A DNA stretch of 64,000 nt from Patescibacteria group bacterium (lineage in GTDB: Bacteria > Patescibacteriota > Minisyncoccia > Phycocordibacterales > SBAW01): the NCBI GenBank assembly GCA_028866155.1, contig JAGWIT010000001.1:165-64164 (forward strand). The letters run 5' to 3'. Under the pieces are notes generated by a model. That model ran no database searches. It worked only from the letters and a program-made list of their open reading frames with translations, and was not told the DNA's origin. Shown here piece by piece: positions 26,872 through 43,543 of this stretch (position 1 is the stretch's first letter; each line of letters starts with the position of its first letter). Made by a program: the position numbers and the translations under genes.

Positions 26872-33750
<6,879 letters not shown>

Positions 33751-38317: not shown

Positions 38318-40573
38318 TTACTTCGCGACTGCCAGCGCCTCGTCAAATTTGACTGATAACAGTTTTGAGACGCCGTCTTGGCCCATCGTGACGCCGTAGA
38401 GGATGCCCGCGCGGCTCATCGTCTCGCGGTTGTGCGTGATAACAATAAGCTGGCTGTGCTGTGCGAGCGTCTCAACCATGTCGCCGTAGCGGCGCGAGTT
38501 GGCTTCGTCGAGCGCCGCGTCGGTCTCGTCAAGAATAAGAAACGGCGGCGGGTTGACCTGCGACATCGCGAAGATGAGCGCTATTGAGGTGAGCGCACGC
38601 TCGCCGCCCGAGAGCATGTGGAGCCCTTTAACACGCTTGTGCGGGAGCGAGATAGTGATATCGACGCCTTCTTCAACTTCGATATCTTCTTCATCCGCTT
38701 CTTCATCTTTGAGCTCCGCTGCGTCCGCCGAAACCTTGGAGTAGGAGGAACGCAGTTTTTTTTCTTTGACGGTCTGCAGCATTGCCGAGCCGCCACCGAA
38801 CATAAGCTTGAAGAATTTGTCGAACTCGCCGTTTATTTTGCCTATCCCGTCGACAAAGCGCAGTTCGAGCGTCTTGGTGAGTTCGGCTATAAGCGCGCGC
38901 AACTGCTCGGCCGAGTCGTTGAGGTCGGCAAGCTCGCAGCTCAGAAACTGGTCGCGCTCGCTCGTTTCTTTAAACTCTTTGAGCACCTCGGTGTGATTGC
39001 CGGTGCCTACCTCCTCGAGCTTGATGATAAGCCGCTGCAATTTGCGGCGGCGCTCTTCCTGCACTTGGCGGTCTTCGTCGGCGATGTCCGCATCAGACAC
39101 CGCTTCCCCGCTGTTGTTGCGAACGACAGGCGAGTCATAGTCTATTGCCGCGCCGGCGAGCGCGCTTGCCTCACCGAGTTCGCGCTTAAAGTTCTCCTCC
39201 TCGCGGCTCAGAAGCTCCTCGCGGCCCTTCAGCGACGCGAGCACCGCCTCAAGTTCGCTGCGCCGGCTCATTGCGGCAAACAACTCGCGCTCGGCGTCGC
39301 GCGAGGCGTCCTTCTCGCTCTCGATGCTACGGCGCAGAGCTTCGGTAGCTTTGCGCACGCGCTCTTCCTGTGCCCCAAGTTCGTGCATTTCTTTTTCAAG
39401 CGCGGATTTTTTGGCGGCTAGAGCGCCTTTGTTATTTTCAGCCCTATCTTCCGGGCGGCTCTGGATCCGGCGCATGAACTCCTTCGCCAAAATCACGAGC
39501 GCGTTCAGCTTGGTTTTGAGCCGCTCTATTTCGCTCAAGGCAAGAGTCTGCTCCAGTTCACTTAATACTCGTTCGGCAAACGTGCGCGCCTCTTCCGCAG
39601 GGATGCTTTCCTCAACCGCGCCGCTCAAGCGCTCAAGCGCCCTCAGCTCGCCTTCGATACGGCCCAATTCGCGCGATATCTCATCGCGCCGCATGCGCAG
39701 GTTGCGGCCCTCTTCCTCAAGCCGCATAAGCTCCTGCGTGCCGGCGTCCTTGCCGTGCGTTTTGGCAAGCTCGTCGCGCAAGTGCTTTATTTTGTGCTCG
39801 AGTTCTTGATGGAGGCGTGCGGGCTCGTCGCGCTCATCGACGAGCAATGCGGCCGTGATGCGCAGATACACGCTCTCGCGTTTTAAATATTCGGCGTATT
39901 TTTGGGCCACGTCATCGCGCAGAGCGTGCGACTCCTCTATCTTTTTGACCTGCGCCTGCAAGAATTTTAGATGGGGAGTAAGCTCACGGCGAGAGACCTC
40001 GACCTCGCGCATATTCTCCCCCGTCTTCTCGAGCTTTCGCTCGGCCTCTTCTCTTTTATACAAATAGGCGGTCAGTCCGAGCGCGTCTTCTATCATCTCG
40101 CGGCGCTCGATGAGCGTCGCGGTCAAAACGCGGTCGGCCTCGCCCTGCGAGATGATGTGGTGCCCGCTTGCTCCGATATTTGCCTGGCTCAAAAGCTCGG
40201 CGATATCGCGCAGGCGCACCACCGAGCCGTTGAGCATATATTCATTGATGCCGCTGCGGTGCACCACGCGCTCGAGCGACACTTCGTCAAAGTCCAAGTT
40301 CAATGCGCGATCGCTGTTGTCAAACACAAGCTTCACCGAAGCGCGGCCCGCCCGTGGCGAGGCGGCCGAACCATTCCAAATCAAATCCTCGCCACGCTTG
40401 CCGCGCATAGACTTCATCGACTGCTCGCCGAGCACAAAGCGGAAGCTCTCGGCAATATTTGATTTGCCCGAGCCGTTGGGCCCCACCACCGAGGTAATAG
40501 CCGAGCCAAACTCCAACTGAGTCTTTTTGGCAAAGGATTTAAACCCCGCAAGTTCGATGCTTTTGAGCCGCAT
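38318..40573 (-). CDS. smc: SMC-family chromosome segregation ATPase, short form (751 aa)
   Basis: N-terminal Walker A (GPNGSGKSNI), a long coiled coil, and the C-terminal signature LSGGERALTSIALIFAM...LILDETDAALD. Confidence 0.65.
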   Translation of the reverse strand: MRLKSIELAGFKSFAKKTQLEFGSAITSVVGPNGSGKSNIAESFRFVLGEQSMKSMRGKRGEDLIWNGSAASPRAGRASVKLVFDNSDRALNLDFDEVSLERVVHRSGINEYMLNGSVVRLRDIAELLSQANIGASGHHIISQGEADRVLTATLIERREMIEDALGLTAYLYKREEAERKLEKTGENMREVEVSRRELTPHLKFLQAQVKKIEESHALRDDVAQKYAEYLKRESVYLRITAALLVDERDEPARLHQELEHKIKHLRDELAKTHGKDAGTQELMRLEEEGRNLRMRRDEISRELGRIEGELRALERLSGAVEESIPAEEARTFAERVLSELEQTLALSEIERLKTKLNALVILAKEFMRRIQSRPEDRAENNKGALAAKKSALEKEMHELGAQEERVRKATEALRRSIESEKDASRDAERELFAAMSRRSELEAVLASLKGREELLSREEENFKRELGEASALAGAAIDYDSPVVRNNSGEAVSDADIADEDRQVQEERRRKLQRLIIKLEEVGTGNHTEVLKEFKETSERDQFLSCELADLNDSAEQLRALIAELTKTLELRFVDGIGKINGEFDKFFKLMFGGGSAMLQTVKEKKLRSSYSKVSADAAELKDEEADEEDIEVEEGVDITISLPHKRVKGLHMLSGGERALTSIALIFAMSQVNPPPFLILDETDAALDEANSRRYGDMVETLAQHSQLIVITHNRETMSRAGILYGVTMGQDGVSKLLSVKFDEALAVAK

Positions 40574-40583
40574 TTAAACTATT

Positions 40584-41279
40584 TTACCACCCGTTTTTCT
40601 CAAGGGCGGCTTGGGCTGCCGCTTGTTCGGCTTCCTGCTTGGCTTTGCCGGAGCCTTCGGCGATGAGCTTGTCTTTGACGTATACGCCGACGACAAAACG
40701 CTTGTCATGGTCGGGGCCGGCCTCTTTGAGGACCGAGTAATAGGGGGTAACGCCCTCCACCTCCTGCACCTTTTCCTGCAAGGCCGATTTGGAGTCCTGC
40801 CACAGCTTCTTTTTTATTATCTCGTCGATCTTGGGGAAGAGATGTTCCGAGATGAATGCGCGCGCGGCGTCATAGCCCTGGTCGAGGTAGATGGCGCCGA
40901 CCACCGCCTCAAACGCATTGGCGAGCAAAACGCCGCGCGCACGGCCCGTGTCCTTTGCCTCCCCGCGGCTAAGCAGAAGGTAATCGTTCATCCCCAATTT
41001 TTGAGCGACCTCCGAAAGCGTCACCGCGTTGACCAGCGCCGCGCGATACGCGGTTAAATCGCCCTCGGGTTTGTCGGGGAATTTTTCATACAAAAAGTGC
41101 GTCGATATGAGCTCGAGCACGGCGTCGCCCAAAAACTCGAGCCGCTCGTTGTGGCCGCCCTTCTCCCCGCGGTGCTCGTTAAGGTAGGAGCGGTGGGTAA
41201 ACGCCTGCCGCAAAAGCGAAAGATCATTGAACGAAACGCCGAGCGTCTCTTCGAACGATTGAAAATCTCTGCCTGGCAT
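40584..41279 (-). CDS. rnc: Ribonuclease III
   Basis: ERLEFLGDAVLEL signature and a C-terminal dsRBD. Confidence 0.85.
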   Translation of the reverse strand: MPGRDFQSFEETLGVSFNDLSLLRQAFTHRSYLNEHRGEKGGHNERLEFLGDAVLELISTHFLYEKFPDKPEGDLTAYRAALVNAVTLSEVAQKLGMNDYLLLSRGEAKDTGRARGVLLANAFEAVVGAIYLDQGYDAARAFISEHLFPKIDEIIKKKLWQDSKSALQEKVQEVEGVTPYYSVLKEAGPDHDKRFVVGVYVKDKLIAEGSGKAKQEAEQAAAQAALEKNGW

Positions 41280-41285
41280 GCTTGT

Positions 41286-42203
41286 TTATTTTTTCTGGTT
41301 TTTAATCTGTATTTTTTGCAGTGCTTTCGTCACGATGGGCAGCACGTCGTCATAGAAGTTGAGTTCCAAAGCGTCCTGCAAACGAAACCACTTTGCGTCA
41401 TCGAGCCCCCCGGTCTGCTTCAGCGTAATCTCGGCGTACGGTGACTCGGCCAAAAAATACGTCACCTGCTTGCGCTTCTTCCCCACCTCCGGGTCCGAAG
41501 CGATATATTCGTTGTCACCGACCTTTTCCTTAAGCGTGATATCAAGATTCATCTCCTCTTTTATCTCGCGGATAGTGCCTTCCTCGACGGTTTCATTGGC
41601 AATCTCGGGCTTGTCGCCTATCTTGCCCTTGCTTAGCGTCCAATGGCCAAAAATGTCGTGGACGACCGCGAGATATATGTCGCCTTGATGCCTGGCGTAC
41701 ACCACCGCGCCGCCGAGCTTCTCAACGGGCATCTGCGCGTAAGGCACGTCCTTCTTCTTTTTTGAGACTTCGTCCTTGCCGGGCTCGCCCAGCTCTTTGT
41801 AGACCGCGCCTAAGACGCCGTTGACAAAGCGGCCGCTGTTCTCGCCGCCGAAGCTTTTGGCAAGCTCTATCGCTTCGTTGATAGCGACTTTTGCCGGCAC
41901 CTTTTGCCGGTCGGAGAATAATAGTTCATATAACCCGAGACGCAAAACATTGCGGTCAACCGGCGCTATGCGCGAAAGAGGCCACTCGGGCGCGGCCTTT
42001 TCTATCACCAAATCCAAGTCAGAGCGGCGCGCGACCACCCCTTTAAGCAACTCTTCCATAAACGGCAAGTCGCCCGCCTGGGGGGCAAACTCGGCCGCGT
42101 TTCTTTCAAGTGCAAATTTCGCATCACCAGCAGTGATACTGCGAAAGTCCCACTCGAAGAGCGTCTGGAGGACGACCGATCGTGACAGGTGCCGGTTTGC
42201 CAT
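41286..42203 (-). CDS. nusB: NusB transcription antitermination factor fused to a C-terminal NUDIX-like hydrolase domain
   Basis: The N-terminal ~140 aa are classic NusB (VDRNVLRLGLYEL, VAINEAIELAKSFGGENSGRFVNGVL). The C-terminal ~150 aa carry a Nudix-box-like REIKEEMNL preceded by GKIGDKPE. Confidence 0.7.
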   Translation of the reverse strand: MANRHLSRSVVLQTLFEWDFRSITAGDAKFALERNAAEFAPQAGDLPFMEELLKGVVARRSDLDLVIEKAAPEWPLSRIAPVDRNVLRLGLYELLFSDRQKVPAKVAINEAIELAKSFGGENSGRFVNGVLGAVYKELGEPGKDEVSKKKKDVPYAQMPVEKLGGAVVYARHQGDIYLAVVHDIFGHWTLSKGKIGDKPEIANETVEEGTIREIKEEMNLDITLKEKVGDNEYIASDPEVGKKRKQVTYFLAESPYAEITLKQTGGLDDAKWFRLQDALELNFYDDVLPIVTKALQKIQIKNQKK

Positions 42204-42251
42204 ATGTTAAAGAAGAACTTCCCTGAGCGCCCGTAACCAAAGAGCTGTGTC

Positions 42252-42476
42252 TTATTTTTCGGCCTTGACCTTCGCCTCCTTGCGGGCGGCGCGGGCCCTC
42301 GCCTTGGCTGCGAAGTCGATGACCACCTTCCCATTATACCGCCCGCATGCCGGGCATGCGCGATGAGACACGCGCATGTTCCCGCACTCGCACTTGACGA
42401 GCGAGTGGGCCTTGAGCGCGTGGTGCGACCGGCGGTTAGCCGTGTGCGCACGGGTATGTCGCATTCGTACAACCAT
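42252..42476 (-). CDS. rpmF: 50S ribosomal protein L32
   Basis: RRSHHAL and C..CG....HRACPACGRYNGK zinc-ribbon pattern of L32. Confidence 0.75.
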   Translation of the reverse strand: MVVRMRHTRAHTANRRSHHALKAHSLVKCECGNMRVSHRACPACGRYNGKVVIDFAAKARARAARKEAKVKAEK

Positions 42477-42589
42477 GCCAGCACTATATCATCTTCTTAT
42501 ATTTGACGCCAGCTAAAGCCGGCTATGAGCTAAAAAAGACAAACCGGGCGCTGTGAGCGTCCGGTTCTTATTTTTTGCTGAACGAAATC

Positions 42590-42880
42590 TTATGCCGCTT
42601 TAACTTGGTACCCGCTATCGGCCATATCCTGCATGACCATTTGGTTGACCTCTTCAACCGTGGTCGCATTCACATGAAAAGCATTGCAATAGCCGGTCGT
42701 AGGCGGACTTCCCTTATGAGGACACTCGCCTGTGCCATGATGCTTGCAAAACTTACCGCATACCGAAGGATTTTCTCGCCGATACCCTTGTACGATCTCG
42801 GACATCGTCTTGCCGTCGTATTCTTGCTCGATCGGCCTGGACTTGCTTCGGCGGGTAATTAACCTCTCCCCTTCATTCAC
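42590..42880 (-). CDS. Small Cys/His-containing hypothetical protein (96 aa)
   Basis: CGKFCKHHGTGECPHKG cluster. Lower GC. It lies upstream of rpmF on the same strand. Confidence 0.35.
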   Translation of the reverse strand: MNEGERLITRRSKSRPIEQEYDGKTMSEIVQGYRRENPSVCGKFCKHHGTGECPHKGSPPTTGYCNAFHVNATTVEEVNQMVMQDMADSGYQVKAA

Positions 42881-42946
42881 GGCATTTCCCCTATTTCCTT
42901 TGAGTGGCCCTTTTACGCGATGAATTACAGAACAACCAGCTACAAA

Positions 42947-43543
42947 CTATATCGCGGACTCGTACCATTTGCAATAACTGCGGCGGTGGATTTCGCTCAA
43001 GCCAAATTGCCGTATTGCGTCATAATGCATCTTTGTTCCGTATCCCTTGTGCGACTCAAAGCCGTAGTTAGGAAACTTTTTAGCCATGCGCTTCATCAAG
43101 CGGTCGCGCTCGACCTTGGCGGCTATCGAGGCGAGCGAAATTATAGGCTGTGATTCGTCGCCATTGATTATTGTTTCCTGAACATATTGAGATGGCGCGT
43201 ATAAAAGCCCGTCGAGTTTGATTGAAACGACCGCGGGCTCGGGCGCGAGCGCTCGCACGCCGCTGATGATGGCTTTTTTAACCGCTTTGGTGATGCCAAG
43301 CTCGTCGATTGTCAAATGATCTGAAAATCTCACGACAAACTCAATGTCGCCCGTTTTCTTGCGCCCGAGCAGCTGTTCATAAATTTCCTCGCGCGCACTT
43401 GCGGTCAATTGTTTTGAATCCTTAGTGCCCGGGAATTCTTTTAAAACATCAAAATTGAGCGGCACCCGGACAAACCCCACCGAAACCGGACCTGCCAAAG
43501 GCGCCCGTCCCGCCTCATCCACGCCAATGAGAAACTGGTGCAT
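42947..43543 (-). CDS. rnhB: Ribonuclease HII
   Basis: GVDEAGRAPLAGPV N-terminal catalytic motif. Confidence 0.85.
   Translation of the reverse strand: MHQFLIGVDEAGRAPLAGPVSVGFVRVPLNFDVLKEFPGTKDSKQLTASAREEIYEQLLGRKKTGDIEFVVRFSDHLTIDELGITKAVKKAIISGVRALAPEPAVVSIKLDGLLYAPSQYVQETIINGDESQPIISLASIAAKVERDRLMKRMAKKFPNYGFESHKGYGTKMHYDAIRQFGLSEIHRRSYCKWYESAI

Follow-up and report, generated by a model that had tools for sequence, protein, structure and literature searches.

NusB helps RNA polymerase to complete rRNA: together with ribosomal protein S10, it binds BoxA of the nascent transcript and thereby nucleates the complex for rRNA antitermination and processing. It is generally regarded as a housekeeping protein, small and composed of a single domain. 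The ten solved NusB chains that are matched by the protein described here are all composed of a single domain, 139−156 amino acids in length. In E. coli NusB, F122 stacks on U8 of BoxA and the substitution F122D abolishes binding; a D118N variant binds lambda BoxA more tightly (PMC3177189). A combination of a NusB fold and an enzyme is known from RsmB (also named Sun), where a NusB-like N-terminal domain is found on a 16S rRNA methyltransferase, i.e., on an enzyme that acts on rRNA. An enzyme fold is also found within the Nus complex itself. The E. coli protein SuhB is reported to be an integral component of this complex on BoxA-containing transcripts and to be autoregulated through BoxA (PMC5725501, PMC6614797).

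The Nudix fold is known from systems in which it is used as a binder, for example the NrtR/AraR-type regulators, where NrtR binds DNA by a winged helix and senses ADP-ribose. In eukaryotes, a Nudix fold is found inside an RNA-synthesis and RNA-processing machine in the form of the dimeric CFIm25 (also named NUDT21), a separate polypeptide that binds RNA sequence-specifically. CFIm25, in which two of the glutamates of the Nudix box are replaced, also binds Ap4A (Kd 2.4 uM) and ATP without hydrolysis (PMC2425470). The bacterial Nudix enzyme RppH (also named NudH) cleaves Ap4A-type substrates and removes a triphosphate or an Np4 group from RNA 5' ends (PMC9283932), and a Nudix domain located beside a nascent leader could plausibly have such an activity.

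Here, we describe a gene that joins the two folds in one polypeptide. The gene is found in a 64-kb stretch of DNA (referred to as the window) from a Parcubacteria-group organism, and its features are listed in Table 1. The 305-residue product is 100% identical to a protein in NCBI (P0001) that is named NusB there, and the database annotation of the whole family states only "NusB". A first-pass annotation of the window had proposed a Nudix domain attached to NusB, an interpretation that is supported overall by the data below, and had called the fusion undescribed; in agreement with the latter, no published description of a NusB−Nudix fusion was found upon combining NusB with Nudix, NusB with Candidate Phyla Radiation and Nudix with antitermination in literature searches.

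Table 1. Features of the NusB−Nudix locus, in positions of the window
Feature	Position	Strand	Description	Basis
nusB::nudix fusion gene	41286..42203	(-)	305 codons and stop, ATG start	ORF list, Pfam NusB and NUDIX
NusB domain, residues 1-138	41790..42203	(-)		PF01029, TIGR01951, PDB NusB chains
Lys-rich interdomain linker, residues 139-163	41715..41789	(-)	GEPGKDEVSKKKKDVPYAQMPVEKL	translation
Nudix-fold domain, ApnA-hydrolase type, residues 164-305	41289..41714	(-)		
Nudix box peptide	41544-41627	(-)	GKIGDKPEIANETVEEGTIREIKEEMNL; G193-x10-E204-x7-R212-E213-I-K-E216-E217-M-N219-L220	translation, mapping to NUDT2, aq_158, Ndx1, CT771
Insertion KPEIA	41598..41612	(-)	5 residues, within the box loop G-x5-E	translation
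BoxA-like element	42205..42215	(-)	CUUCUUUAACA; 10/11 match to GYTCTTTAANA, ends 1 nt before the start codon	
Second BoxA half-site	42239-42245	(-)	GCUCUUU	
rpmF (ribosomal protein L32)	42252..42476	(-)	upstream gene, same strand cluster	Pfam PF01783
rnc (RNase III)	40584..41279	(-)	6 nt past the fusion stop codon	Pfam Ribonucleas_3_3 and dsrm
Short SMC-family ATPase, 751 aa	38318..40573	(-)	final gene of the conserved cluster	Pfam SMC_N

The N-terminal domain is a true NusB equivalog, or "bona fide NusB" in the words of the first-pass annotation. Residues 7−136 match the Pfam NusB family (PF01029) with an E value of 3.7e-34 (118.4 bits, cutoff 23.1) and the NCBIfam equivalog model for nusB, TIGR01951, is matched at 124.6 bits (cutoff 88.35); with a second NusB equivalog model, NF001223, the score is 99.2, which is under the cutoff of 131. 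NusB chains in the PDB align end to end with residues 1−138 (E 1e-14 to 4e-20), and in an AlphaFold2 model of the full-length protein this half is composed of seven helices over residues 4−138 (block pLDDT 75−90). The domain is the same as that of NusB from E. coli, Aquifex and Thermotoga in terms of both curated cutoffs and full-length alignment to the solved chains, and it shares with these proteins the Phe that stacks on U8 of BoxA. This residue corresponds to F126 (E. coli F122) and, like N128 and G129, is found in 120/120 orthologues; N109 is Asn in 114/120. The residue that aligns with E. coli D118 is N122 in the window protein, i.e., a natural Asn. Binding of BoxA and S10, as well as support of rRNA antitermination, are putative functions of this half. 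Models of RsmB match it weakly (59.7 bits, far under the cutoff of 319), and in contrast to RsmB, the fusion has no methyltransferase domain and its N-terminal domain is a NusB equivalog. Compared with the solved, single-domain NusB chains, the fusion adds a linker of 25 residues and a Nudix domain of 142 residues.

The C-terminal, "NUDIX-like" domain of the first-pass annotation proved to have an alpha/beta/alpha Nudix fold over residues 164−305, and the Pfam search that had been proposed for this part returned NUDIX (PF00293) at residues 170−282 (E 7e-10, 39.5 bits, cutoff 21.1). The nearest relatives in both sequence and structure are characterized ApnA hydrolases, i.e., Aquifex aq_158 (3i7u), Thermus Ndx1 (1vc8), Chlamydia CT771 (4ilq), the C. 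elegans and human NUDT2 (1ktg, 3u53) and M. tuberculosis Rv2985 (9cxx). In the profile search, the ApnA hydrolases are followed by the Dcp2 family (E 6e-10), and the ADP-ribose sensor domain of NrtR is the fourth-best structural match; CFIm25 is not among the top structural hits. An RppH/NudH-like domain, with an RNA-binding cleft for a second nucleotide, was not found as the closest similarity. The Nudix half belongs to the ApnA hydrolase branch. Other fusions of the same Nudix subfamily involve a BlaI-type repressor and an HTH protein of the sigma70-r4/DnaA-C type.

The residues that contact the ligand in ApnA hydrolases, i.e., the lysine of the Trp-x-x-Pro-Lys-Gly motif, the loop-5 Tyr, the P1 Lys and the second Tyr/Phe, are all found in the window protein, where the Pro of this motif is Ser. 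In alignments with NUDT2, W188, K192, Y233, K245 and Y284 of the window protein correspond to W38, K42, Y82, K89 and F128, respectively. The NUDT2 residue numbers agree with those in PMC4734340, where K42, Y82 and K89 are located at the P1 phosphate, and Y82 and F128 stack on the adenine.

The Nudix box had been described in the first-pass annotation as recognizable but divergent, with KG in place of GG and Asn in place of Gly. Its residues can indeed be mapped to those of the relatives, and both K192-G193 and N219 are found at these positions. However, K192-G193 is not a divergence because W-x-x-[PS]-K-G is the usual sequence in NUDT2, Aquifex aq_158, Ndx1 and CT771, and a degeneration of the motif was therefore rejected. 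A deviation that had been overlooked is the insertion KPEIA, which makes the loop G-x10-E instead of G-x5-E. Together with the replacement of Gly by Asn, the insertion results in a box that does not conform to the strict 23-residue signature G-x5-E-x7-R-E-U-x-E-E-x-G-U; this signature is perfect in the orthologue P0128. The insertion is present in 38/80 close species; its columns are gapped in every stand-alone relative and in 83−97% of diverse fusions (35/36, 35/36, 34/36, 34/36 and 30/36). Despite the insertion and G219N, all catalytic residues, E204, R212, E213, E216 and E217, are retained, as seen in the alignment of the catalytic glutamates that had been suggested. Because the catalytic set is complete, the window protein may be active as a hydrolase, and asymmetric hydrolysis of ApnA is a putative activity. 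It differs from the ApnA hydrolases in that the domain is tethered to NusB and carries the loop insertion and G219N.

A survey of databases, also suggested in the first-pass annotation, showed that the fusion is widespread, with species hits numbering at least 585. Both Pfam domains were found on all of the best 120 clusters (about 300 aa) in one search and on 116/120 in a second search. All titles and source names that bear a lineage refer to Patescibacteria or Parcubacteria, except for one 4-kb contig labeled Bacteriovoracia, which may be mis-binned; with the same single exception, the most divergent members for which an organism is given belong to the Paceibacterota, Parcubacteria or Patescibacteria. 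In 80 related species genomes, a sample obtained in a genome scan with 8 closer sequences and skewed to relatives of at least 56% identity, the fusion is a single ORF in 79 cases, and the one exception ends at a contig edge. Across the close species, identity to the window protein is 72% in the NusB half, 69% in the Nudix half and 67% in the linker (79 species for the linker).

The usual gene order in the related loci is rpmF > nusB::nudix > rnc > smc. The rpmF gene is found directly upstream of the fusion in 73/80 loci and rnc directly downstream in 76/80, and an SMC-family gene is kept downstream of rnc in many loci. The rnc gene adjoins the fusion also in the distant member P0224, and the same synteny surrounds a member with only 34% identity. 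The arrangement rpmF-nusB-rnc differs from that in Pseudomonas, where the order is ribH-nusB (PMC5725501). In the 64-kb window, neither a second NusB or Nudix gene nor an rRNA operon was found; a gene for RNase R/II is located near the fusion (Pfam).

The presence in at least 585 species, the single ORF in 79/80 genomes, the synteny with rnc and rpmF and the conservation of this synteny around the 34%-identical member establish that the NusB−Nudix genes are orthologues and that the fusion took place early in the lineage. An artefact, where mis-assembly, a frameshift or read-through would have joined two genes, is thereby refuted and has a practically negligible probability: independent species genomes yield the single ORF, both domains recur at about 300 aa in both searches and the interdomain linker is conserved. 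No support for an artefact was found, although the metagenomic representatives include a small number of short fragments with only the Nudix part or a NusB tail. The short Nudix-only representatives might have pointed to frequent splitting of the gene; most of them are fragments, some still with a NusB tail.

Upstream of the fusion gene, the window harbors a BoxA-like element (consensus GYTCTTTAANA from PMC5725501) and a second half-site. An element with at most one mismatch is found upstream of the orthologous genes in 14/77 loci (background 0.5%, p 6e-18), and GYTCTTY in 25/78 (background 1.3%). The E. coli-type core, CTTTAACA, is found upstream in the window only, among the orthologues, and in the distant member P0224 no BoxA-like element was found. 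The enrichment is that expected for autoregulation of a Nus factor, and the location of the site is as in other autoregulated Nus-factor genes (PMC5725501).

Across the family, the ligand pocket and the catalytic residues display different patterns of conservation. In 36 diverse fusions, W188 is found in 36/36, K192 in 34/36, Y233 in 32/36, K/R245 in 31/36 and Y284 in 35/36, whereas E213 is found in only 9/36, E216 in 22/36 and R212 in 24/36, and the motif R-E-x2-E-E is intact in 7/36. Examples of naturally degenerate orthologues are P0224 (RVIKDK) and P0167 (RVVKKE). In a second sample of 120 the binding set is found in 120/120, an intact R-E-x2-E-E in 35/120 and E213 in 41/120. The metal ligands are largely kept, with Glu or Asp at position 216 in 113/120 and E217 in 119/120. 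Closer to the window, E..RE..EE is intact in 51/80 species and residue 213 is Glu in 51/80. The sampled sequences are phylogenetically related and the counts therefore overstate independence, which is partly corrected for by parsimony on a tree, where site 213 shows at least 30 changes, of which at least 21 are independent switches between Glu and non-Glu, compared with 0−2 changes for the binding residues. In about two-thirds of the family members the RE-glutamate is gone, i.e., about two-thirds of the orthologues of the window protein have lost a box Glu while the pocket is kept, which is the same pattern as in CFIm25. The window protein itself does not display this CFIm25/NrtR-type loss as it keeps all box glutamates. 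In contrast to the ApnA hydrolases, the fusions have an unconstrained RE-Glu (E58 in NUDT2); the 12 free-standing relatives that are nearest retain every box residue (12/12 at each position).

Because the pocket is nearly invariant while the RE-glutamate evolves freely, we infer that binding is the selected function: across the family, selection appears to act on binding of a nucleoside polyphosphate rather than on its hydrolysis. Members without E213 may still hydrolyze slowly or use another base. Given Glu at position 213, a plain enzymatic role is equally compatible with the data for the organism of the window.

On the basis of these data we tentatively favor, at somewhat less than an even chance, a model where an ApnA/NTP-binding module, possibly hydrolytic in this organism, is tethered to NusB and would feed into rRNA antitermination and processing. 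The fusion gene would encode the NusB of this Parcubacteria-group organism, which together with S10 would bind BoxA in nascent rRNA, and the NusB−S10−BoxA assembly would nucleate the antitermination and processing complex. The Nudix domain, derived from an ApnA hydrolase, would hang on the conserved Lys-rich linker. Its ligand would be a purine nucleoside 5'-polyphosphate, for which free Ap4A/ApnA or an NTP, together with Mg2+, is the most likely candidate. In this way, the nucleotide status would be an input to NusB−S10−BoxA and, consequently, to completion of the rRNA chain and processing by RNase III. In the sub-lineage of the window, where all catalytic residues are retained, the module probably also hydrolyzes its ligand, i.e., it would be a self-resetting sensor or a local scavenger; the modules of most other lineages would bind the ligand but turn it over slowly or not at all. 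The module would differ from NrtR in being fused to an antitermination factor that binds RNA and in having the pocket of an ApnA hydrolase. The full-length AlphaFold model, built from a shallow alignment (20 sequences at 78−100% identity), is poor (pLDDT 70.8, pTM 0.50; below 50 for linker residues 141−151) and useless for the geometry between the domains.

The ligand could instead be an RNA 5' end. Tethered to BoxA, close to where the nascent rRNA leader begins, the module would then bind the triphosphate at the 5' terminus or an Np4N cap, and catalytic versions would remove this group in an RppH/Dcp2-like reaction. Once RNase III has cleaved, a leader marked in this way would undergo 5'-end-dependent decay, and NusB and S10 would be recycled. 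We regard this alternative as rather unlikely, even though a number of observations point in its direction. RNA ends are substrates of Nudix enzymes related closely to this branch: pppRNA is converted to pRNA by RppH, which also strips Np4N caps, and decapping activities are known for NUDT2 (PMC9283932). In addition, Np4A hydrolases of bacteria not only limit Np4 caps but also remove them (PMC13010140). The position of Dcp2 as the family next to the ApnA hydrolases is consistent with such a role, as are the Lys-rich linker, the tight coupling to rnc (a 6-nt gap, neighbors in 76/80 loci), the nearby RNase R/II gene and the complete catalytic set of the window protein.

Candidate-phyla genomes are compact, and fusions can arise easily in them. 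Genome streamlining could have joined a housekeeping ApnA/NTP pyrophosphatase to nusB without any functional coupling, such that the enzyme works independently of antitermination. Both the intact catalytic residues in the window, retained in 33 of the 38 close species with the loop insertion, and the predicted disorder of the linker would fit this scenario. A housekeeping enzyme should, however, keep its catalytic residues as the free-standing relatives do, while the fused copies have repeatedly lost E213, yet the domain and its pocket are constrained over at least 585 species and the linker sequence is conserved; we therefore consider independence improbable. The dispensable catalytic Glu is also compatible with a scaffold that binds no ligand, in which the Nudix fold would offer a protein−protein or protein−RNA surface in the antitermination complex, perhaps in place of a factor missing from reduced genomes. 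A precedent is SuhB, which is reported to belong to the rRNA antitermination complex as an integral structural component (PMC6614797, PMC5725501). In contrast to the Nudix domain, SuhB has an unrelated inositol monophosphatase fold, is encoded by a separate gene and is reported to be a dimer that contacts NusA (PMC6614797); an equivalent position of the Nudix domain is hypothetical. A pure docking surface would not be expected to conserve best exactly the phosphate- and adenine-contacting residues of ApnA hydrolases, along with the Mg2+ ligands E216 and E217, and such a scaffold is accordingly quite improbable.

From the above discussion, it is conceivable, although somewhat doubtful, that NusB in the Parcubacteria group has gained a receptor, in some lineages a hydrolase, for dinucleoside polyphosphates or NTPs or for a capped or triphosphorylated 5' end of the leader, so that a nucleotide alarmone or the state of the RNA 5' end would directly gate rRNA completion and RNase III processing. 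With a similarly limited likelihood, such a receptor on the Nus complex would constitute a regulatory input that has no counterpart in model bacteria, and it might compensate for regulators that are possibly missing from the reduced genomes.

At least 585 species-level genomes of minute, uncultivated bacteria keep NusB fused to a domain derived from an Ap4A hydrolase, in which the pocket is conserved and the chemistry is optional, and thousands of "NusB" entries in the databases hide half of the protein. It is still a matter of debate whether Ap4A serves as a signal or is merely formed as a by-product. Should the pocket bind 5' ends of RNA, non-canonical capping would be linked to rRNA maturation. 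If it binds Ap4A or NTPs, the fusion would be a concrete Ap4A receptor on the transcription machinery and would hint at how ultra-small bacteria tune their ribosome synthesis. The fusion points to a link, hitherto undescribed, by which nucleotide signals or the 5' ends of RNA would be connected to the production of ribosomes.

The protein encoded by nusB::nudix consists of a NusB part (residues 1-138), a linker (139-163) and a Nudix part (164-305). Both domains that the first-pass annotation had proposed, NusB and a Nudix-like C-terminal domain, are recognized by Pfam, the former as PF01029 (residues 7-136, E 3.7e-34) and the latter as PF00293 (residues 170-282, E 7e-10, 39.5 bits against a gathering score of 21.1), i.e., the match to PF00293 by which that annotation could be checked is found above threshold. 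The NusB equivalog TIGR01951 of NCBIfam scores 124.6 bits (cutoff 88.35), and the whole N-terminal half aligns to solved NusB chains from Thermotoga, E. coli, Aquifex and Mycobacterium. The window protein is a member of the NusB family and of the Nudix fold superfamily, in the branch of diadenosine-polyphosphate (ApnA) hydrolases; its first half is a true NusB, its second a Nudix fold of the ApnA-hydrolase type. The Nudix-box peptide quoted in the first-pass annotation is encoded within the gene (table), and its description of the box as divergent holds for the replacement of Gly by Asn (N219; most close relatives carry the canonical Gly), but not for KG as a degraded GG, a reading that we rejected: W-x-x-P-K-G is the usual form in the ApnA-hydrolase branch. 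Overlooked at that stage was a five-residue insertion, KPEIA, which stretches the G-x5-E of the box to G-x10-E. Because of this insertion and G219N, the protein does not match the strict 23-residue Nudix signature.

Features of the nusB::nudix region and related sites (window coordinates)
Feature	Position	Strand	Remark
nusB::nudix ORF	41286..42203	minus	305 codons
Nudix-box peptide	41544-41627	minus	
KPEIA insertion	41598-41612	minus	5 residues
N122 codon	41838-41840	minus	position of E. coli NusB D118
BoxA-like element CUUCUUUAACA	42205-42215	minus	ends one base before start codon
GCUCUUU half-site	42239-42245	minus	in leader of fusion gene
SMC-family gene	38318-40573	minus	751 aa
rpmF-rnhB gap	42477-42946		470 bp
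96-aa ORF	42590..42880	minus	no Pfam match
Terminator-like hairpin	42542-42566	plus	11 bp stem, 7 GC pairs
rnhB	42947..43543	minus	
Longest dnaE ORF, GTG start	43425	plus	overlaps rnhB at 43425-43543 (119 bp)
Perfect GYTCTTTAANA match	28734-28744	minus	inside 2292-aa ORF, 26872..33750 (minus)

An identical NCBI protein is titled [quoted passage not shown], and both Pfam domains are found at ~300 aa in all 120 top clusters at 90% identity (78-100% identical to the window protein). When one genome per species was searched with two motifs taken from the Nudix domain, matches came from at least 585 species. Among the best 80 of these, every title that names a lineage belongs to the Patescibacteria/Parcubacteria group (Adler-, Kaiser-, Nomura-, Taylor- and Zambryskibacteria, Paceibacterota and bulk "Saccharibacteria" labels), while about 12 loci are titled simply "bacterium". 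Of these 80 loci, which are skewed to closer relatives, 79 have the two parts in a single ORF, and the remaining one is truncated at the end of its contig; an artefact can be dismissed as the origin of the fusion, and we assign it a negligible probability. The gene rpmF lies directly upstream (73/80), preceded by rnhB and a divergent dnaE, and rnc, encoding RNase III, directly downstream (76/80), followed by a short smc. The fusion gene shares an operon with the RNase III gene, the spacing in the window being 48 nt (rpmF-nusB), 6 nt (nusB-rnc) and 10 nt (rnc-smc). Because this order is conserved, also around P0224, a database protein just 34% identical to the window protein, the fusions are orthologues that derive from one old event across a large radiation. 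The sole source name outside Patescibacteria in the two sets of best matches is that of P0388, a NusB-Nudix fusion labelled "Bacteriovoracia bacterium" in NCBI, on a 4.4-kb contig that could be mis-binned.

The same narrow Nudix subfamily was seen in other architectures among the database proteins P0257, P0206, P0252 and P0210: a BlaI/Penicillinase_R repressor with Nudix (295 aa, box intact), a Sigma70_r4 and DnaA_C HTH protein with Nudix (379 aa), a protein of 577 aa with C-terminal NusB and Nudix preceded by ~315 unexplained residues, and a tandem double Nudix. The SMC-family gene that closes the conserved cluster is short, as is that of a distant relative (locus L081, 7602-9770, 722 aa). 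Canonical bacterial SMC proteins comprise ~1,200 aa. Here both ends are covered by the Pfam match to SMC_N, which implies that the coiled coil is much shorter. The rpmF-rnhB gap holds no recognizable gene and no Rfam match, and the best terminator-like hairpin of the region lies there on the opposite strand. Since the PHP domain begins only at residue 65 of the longest dnaE ORF, the true start is probably further downstream.

The alignment of catalytic glutamates suggested in the first-pass annotation finds the full set of catalytic and metal-binding box residues in the window protein (E204, R212, E213, E216 and E217), as in the 12 nearest free-standing relatives, which retain every box residue. 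Across the fused family the catalytic Glu is relaxed. Among 36 diverse fusions R-E-x2-E-E is intact in just 7, and position 213 (MutT E53, NUDT2 E58) is Glu in 9, Val in 10 and Lys in 9; in another sample of 120 fusions, independent of the first, the motif is intact in 35, with Glu, Val and Lys in 41, 37 and 18, respectively, and 4 members lack any registered Pfam NUDIX match. These counts refer to related sequences rather than independent events, for which parsimony on a neighbour-joining tree corrects in part, giving at least 30 substitutions at site 213, at least 21 of them switches between Glu and non-Glu (34th in variability among 133 Nudix sites). The metal ligands are largely kept, E216 as E/D in 113/120 and E217 in 119/120. 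The complete set is missing in 29 of 80 close species; it is intact in 33/38 with the loop insertion of the window protein, compared to 18/42 without, and the sub-lineage of the window is one of those in which catalysis still seems possible.

The ligand pocket, on the other hand, is conserved. Residues K192, Y233, K245 and Y284 map to K42, Y82, K89 and F128 in what we take to be the sequence of human NUDT2. Eight of its residue numbers agree with PMC4734340 and PDB entry titles. In the human Ap4A hydrolase these four residues contact the P1 phosphate and stack on the adenine (PMC4734340). Together with W188, they are nearly invariant in the first sample (34-36/36; K/R245 31/36), are present as a set in 120/120 of the second and changed 0-2 times on the tree. 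Identity to the window protein over 79 species is 69% for the Nudix half, 72% for the NusB half and 67% for the linker. Our reading is that selection after the fusion would have kept a Mg2+-nucleoside-polyphosphate binding pocket, not efficient hydrolysis.

We tentatively propose a purine nucleoside polyphosphate as the ligand of the Nudix module. Of the candidates, free Ap4A/ApnA or NTP is favoured, given that the domain is acidic (net charge -4) and is most closely related to ApnA hydrolases, not to RppH or Dcp2. Such a module would place a nucleotide-status input on the NusB-S10-BoxA complex and, in this organism, would probably also hydrolyze the ligand. Nudix folds acting as binders beside nucleic-acid machinery have precedents in CFIm25, which binds Ap4A at 2.4 uM without hydrolysis (PMC2425470), and in NrtR; the same Nudix subfamily is also joined to a BlaI-type repressor and to a sigma70-r4/DnaA-C HTH protein. 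In the main rival reading, which we consider unlikely, the module would instead bind the nascent leader at its ppp or Np4 5' end. Action on such RNA ends is known for RppH and Np4A hydrolases (PMC9283932, PMC13010140), and the Lys-rich linker and the coupling of the gene to rnc speak for this rival, but most members have lost catalysis, which, together with the structural distances, speaks against decapping as the conserved role. A housekeeping enzyme uncoupled from NusB function would retain its catalytic residues; this quite improbable reading is contradicted by the repeated loss of E213, while a ligand-free, SuhB-like scaffold, a similarly poor candidate, is hard to reconcile with the conserved pocket.

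In the NusB half, F126 aligns with E. coli F122, which stacks on BoxA U8 and whose replacement in F122D abolishes BoxA binding (PMC3177189); F126 and the neighbouring alpha7 residues N128 and G129 are invariant in 120/120 orthologues. Position 122, equivalent to E. coli D118, is naturally Asn, and the E. coli D118N variant binds lambda BoxA more tightly (PMC3177189), i.e., by analogy BoxA binding by the fused NusB may be tighter or otherwise tuned. The BoxA-like element before the start codon matches the published consensus GYTCTTTAANA (PMC5725501) at 10/11 positions. Within 50 nt upstream of the fusion, a consensus match with at most one mismatch is found in 14/77 loci (0.5% of background windows, p 6e-18) and with at most two in 31/77 (background 4.5%), counted over related loci and with a consensus that may not be the lineage's own rRNA BoxA; the 64-kb window holds no rRNA for comparison. 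The 7-mer GYTCTTY occurs in 25/78 loci (background 1.3%), where it starts 7-25 nt, mostly 7-14 nt, ahead of the ATG; in front of rnc, rpmF, smc, rnhB and dnaE of these loci it was counted 0-1 times. No BoxA-like element was found at the fusion of the distant member P0224. The Nus-factor genes suhB, rpsJ and ribH-nusB carry an autoregulatory BoxA (PMC5725501); the upstream BoxA-like element fits this known autoregulation and thereby supports a functional BoxA-binding NusB, and it suggests NusB/S10 autoregulation at the translation start of nusB::nudix. The sole perfect consensus match in the window (table) may be a coincidence, the chance expectation being ~0.24 in 128 kb over both strands.

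Literature searches returned no paper that mentions a NusB-Nudix fusion, in line with the first-pass annotation, which had called it undescribed as far as it could judge; databases label the fusion proteins "NusB" alone. Two known domains form a lineage-wide, unremarked combination, the evolutionary signature of which points to a binding role. The architecture would surprise researchers of Nus factors, and with the fusion a possible input of Ap4A or of 5' ends to rRNA synthesis could be addressed by a concrete and inexpensive experiment.
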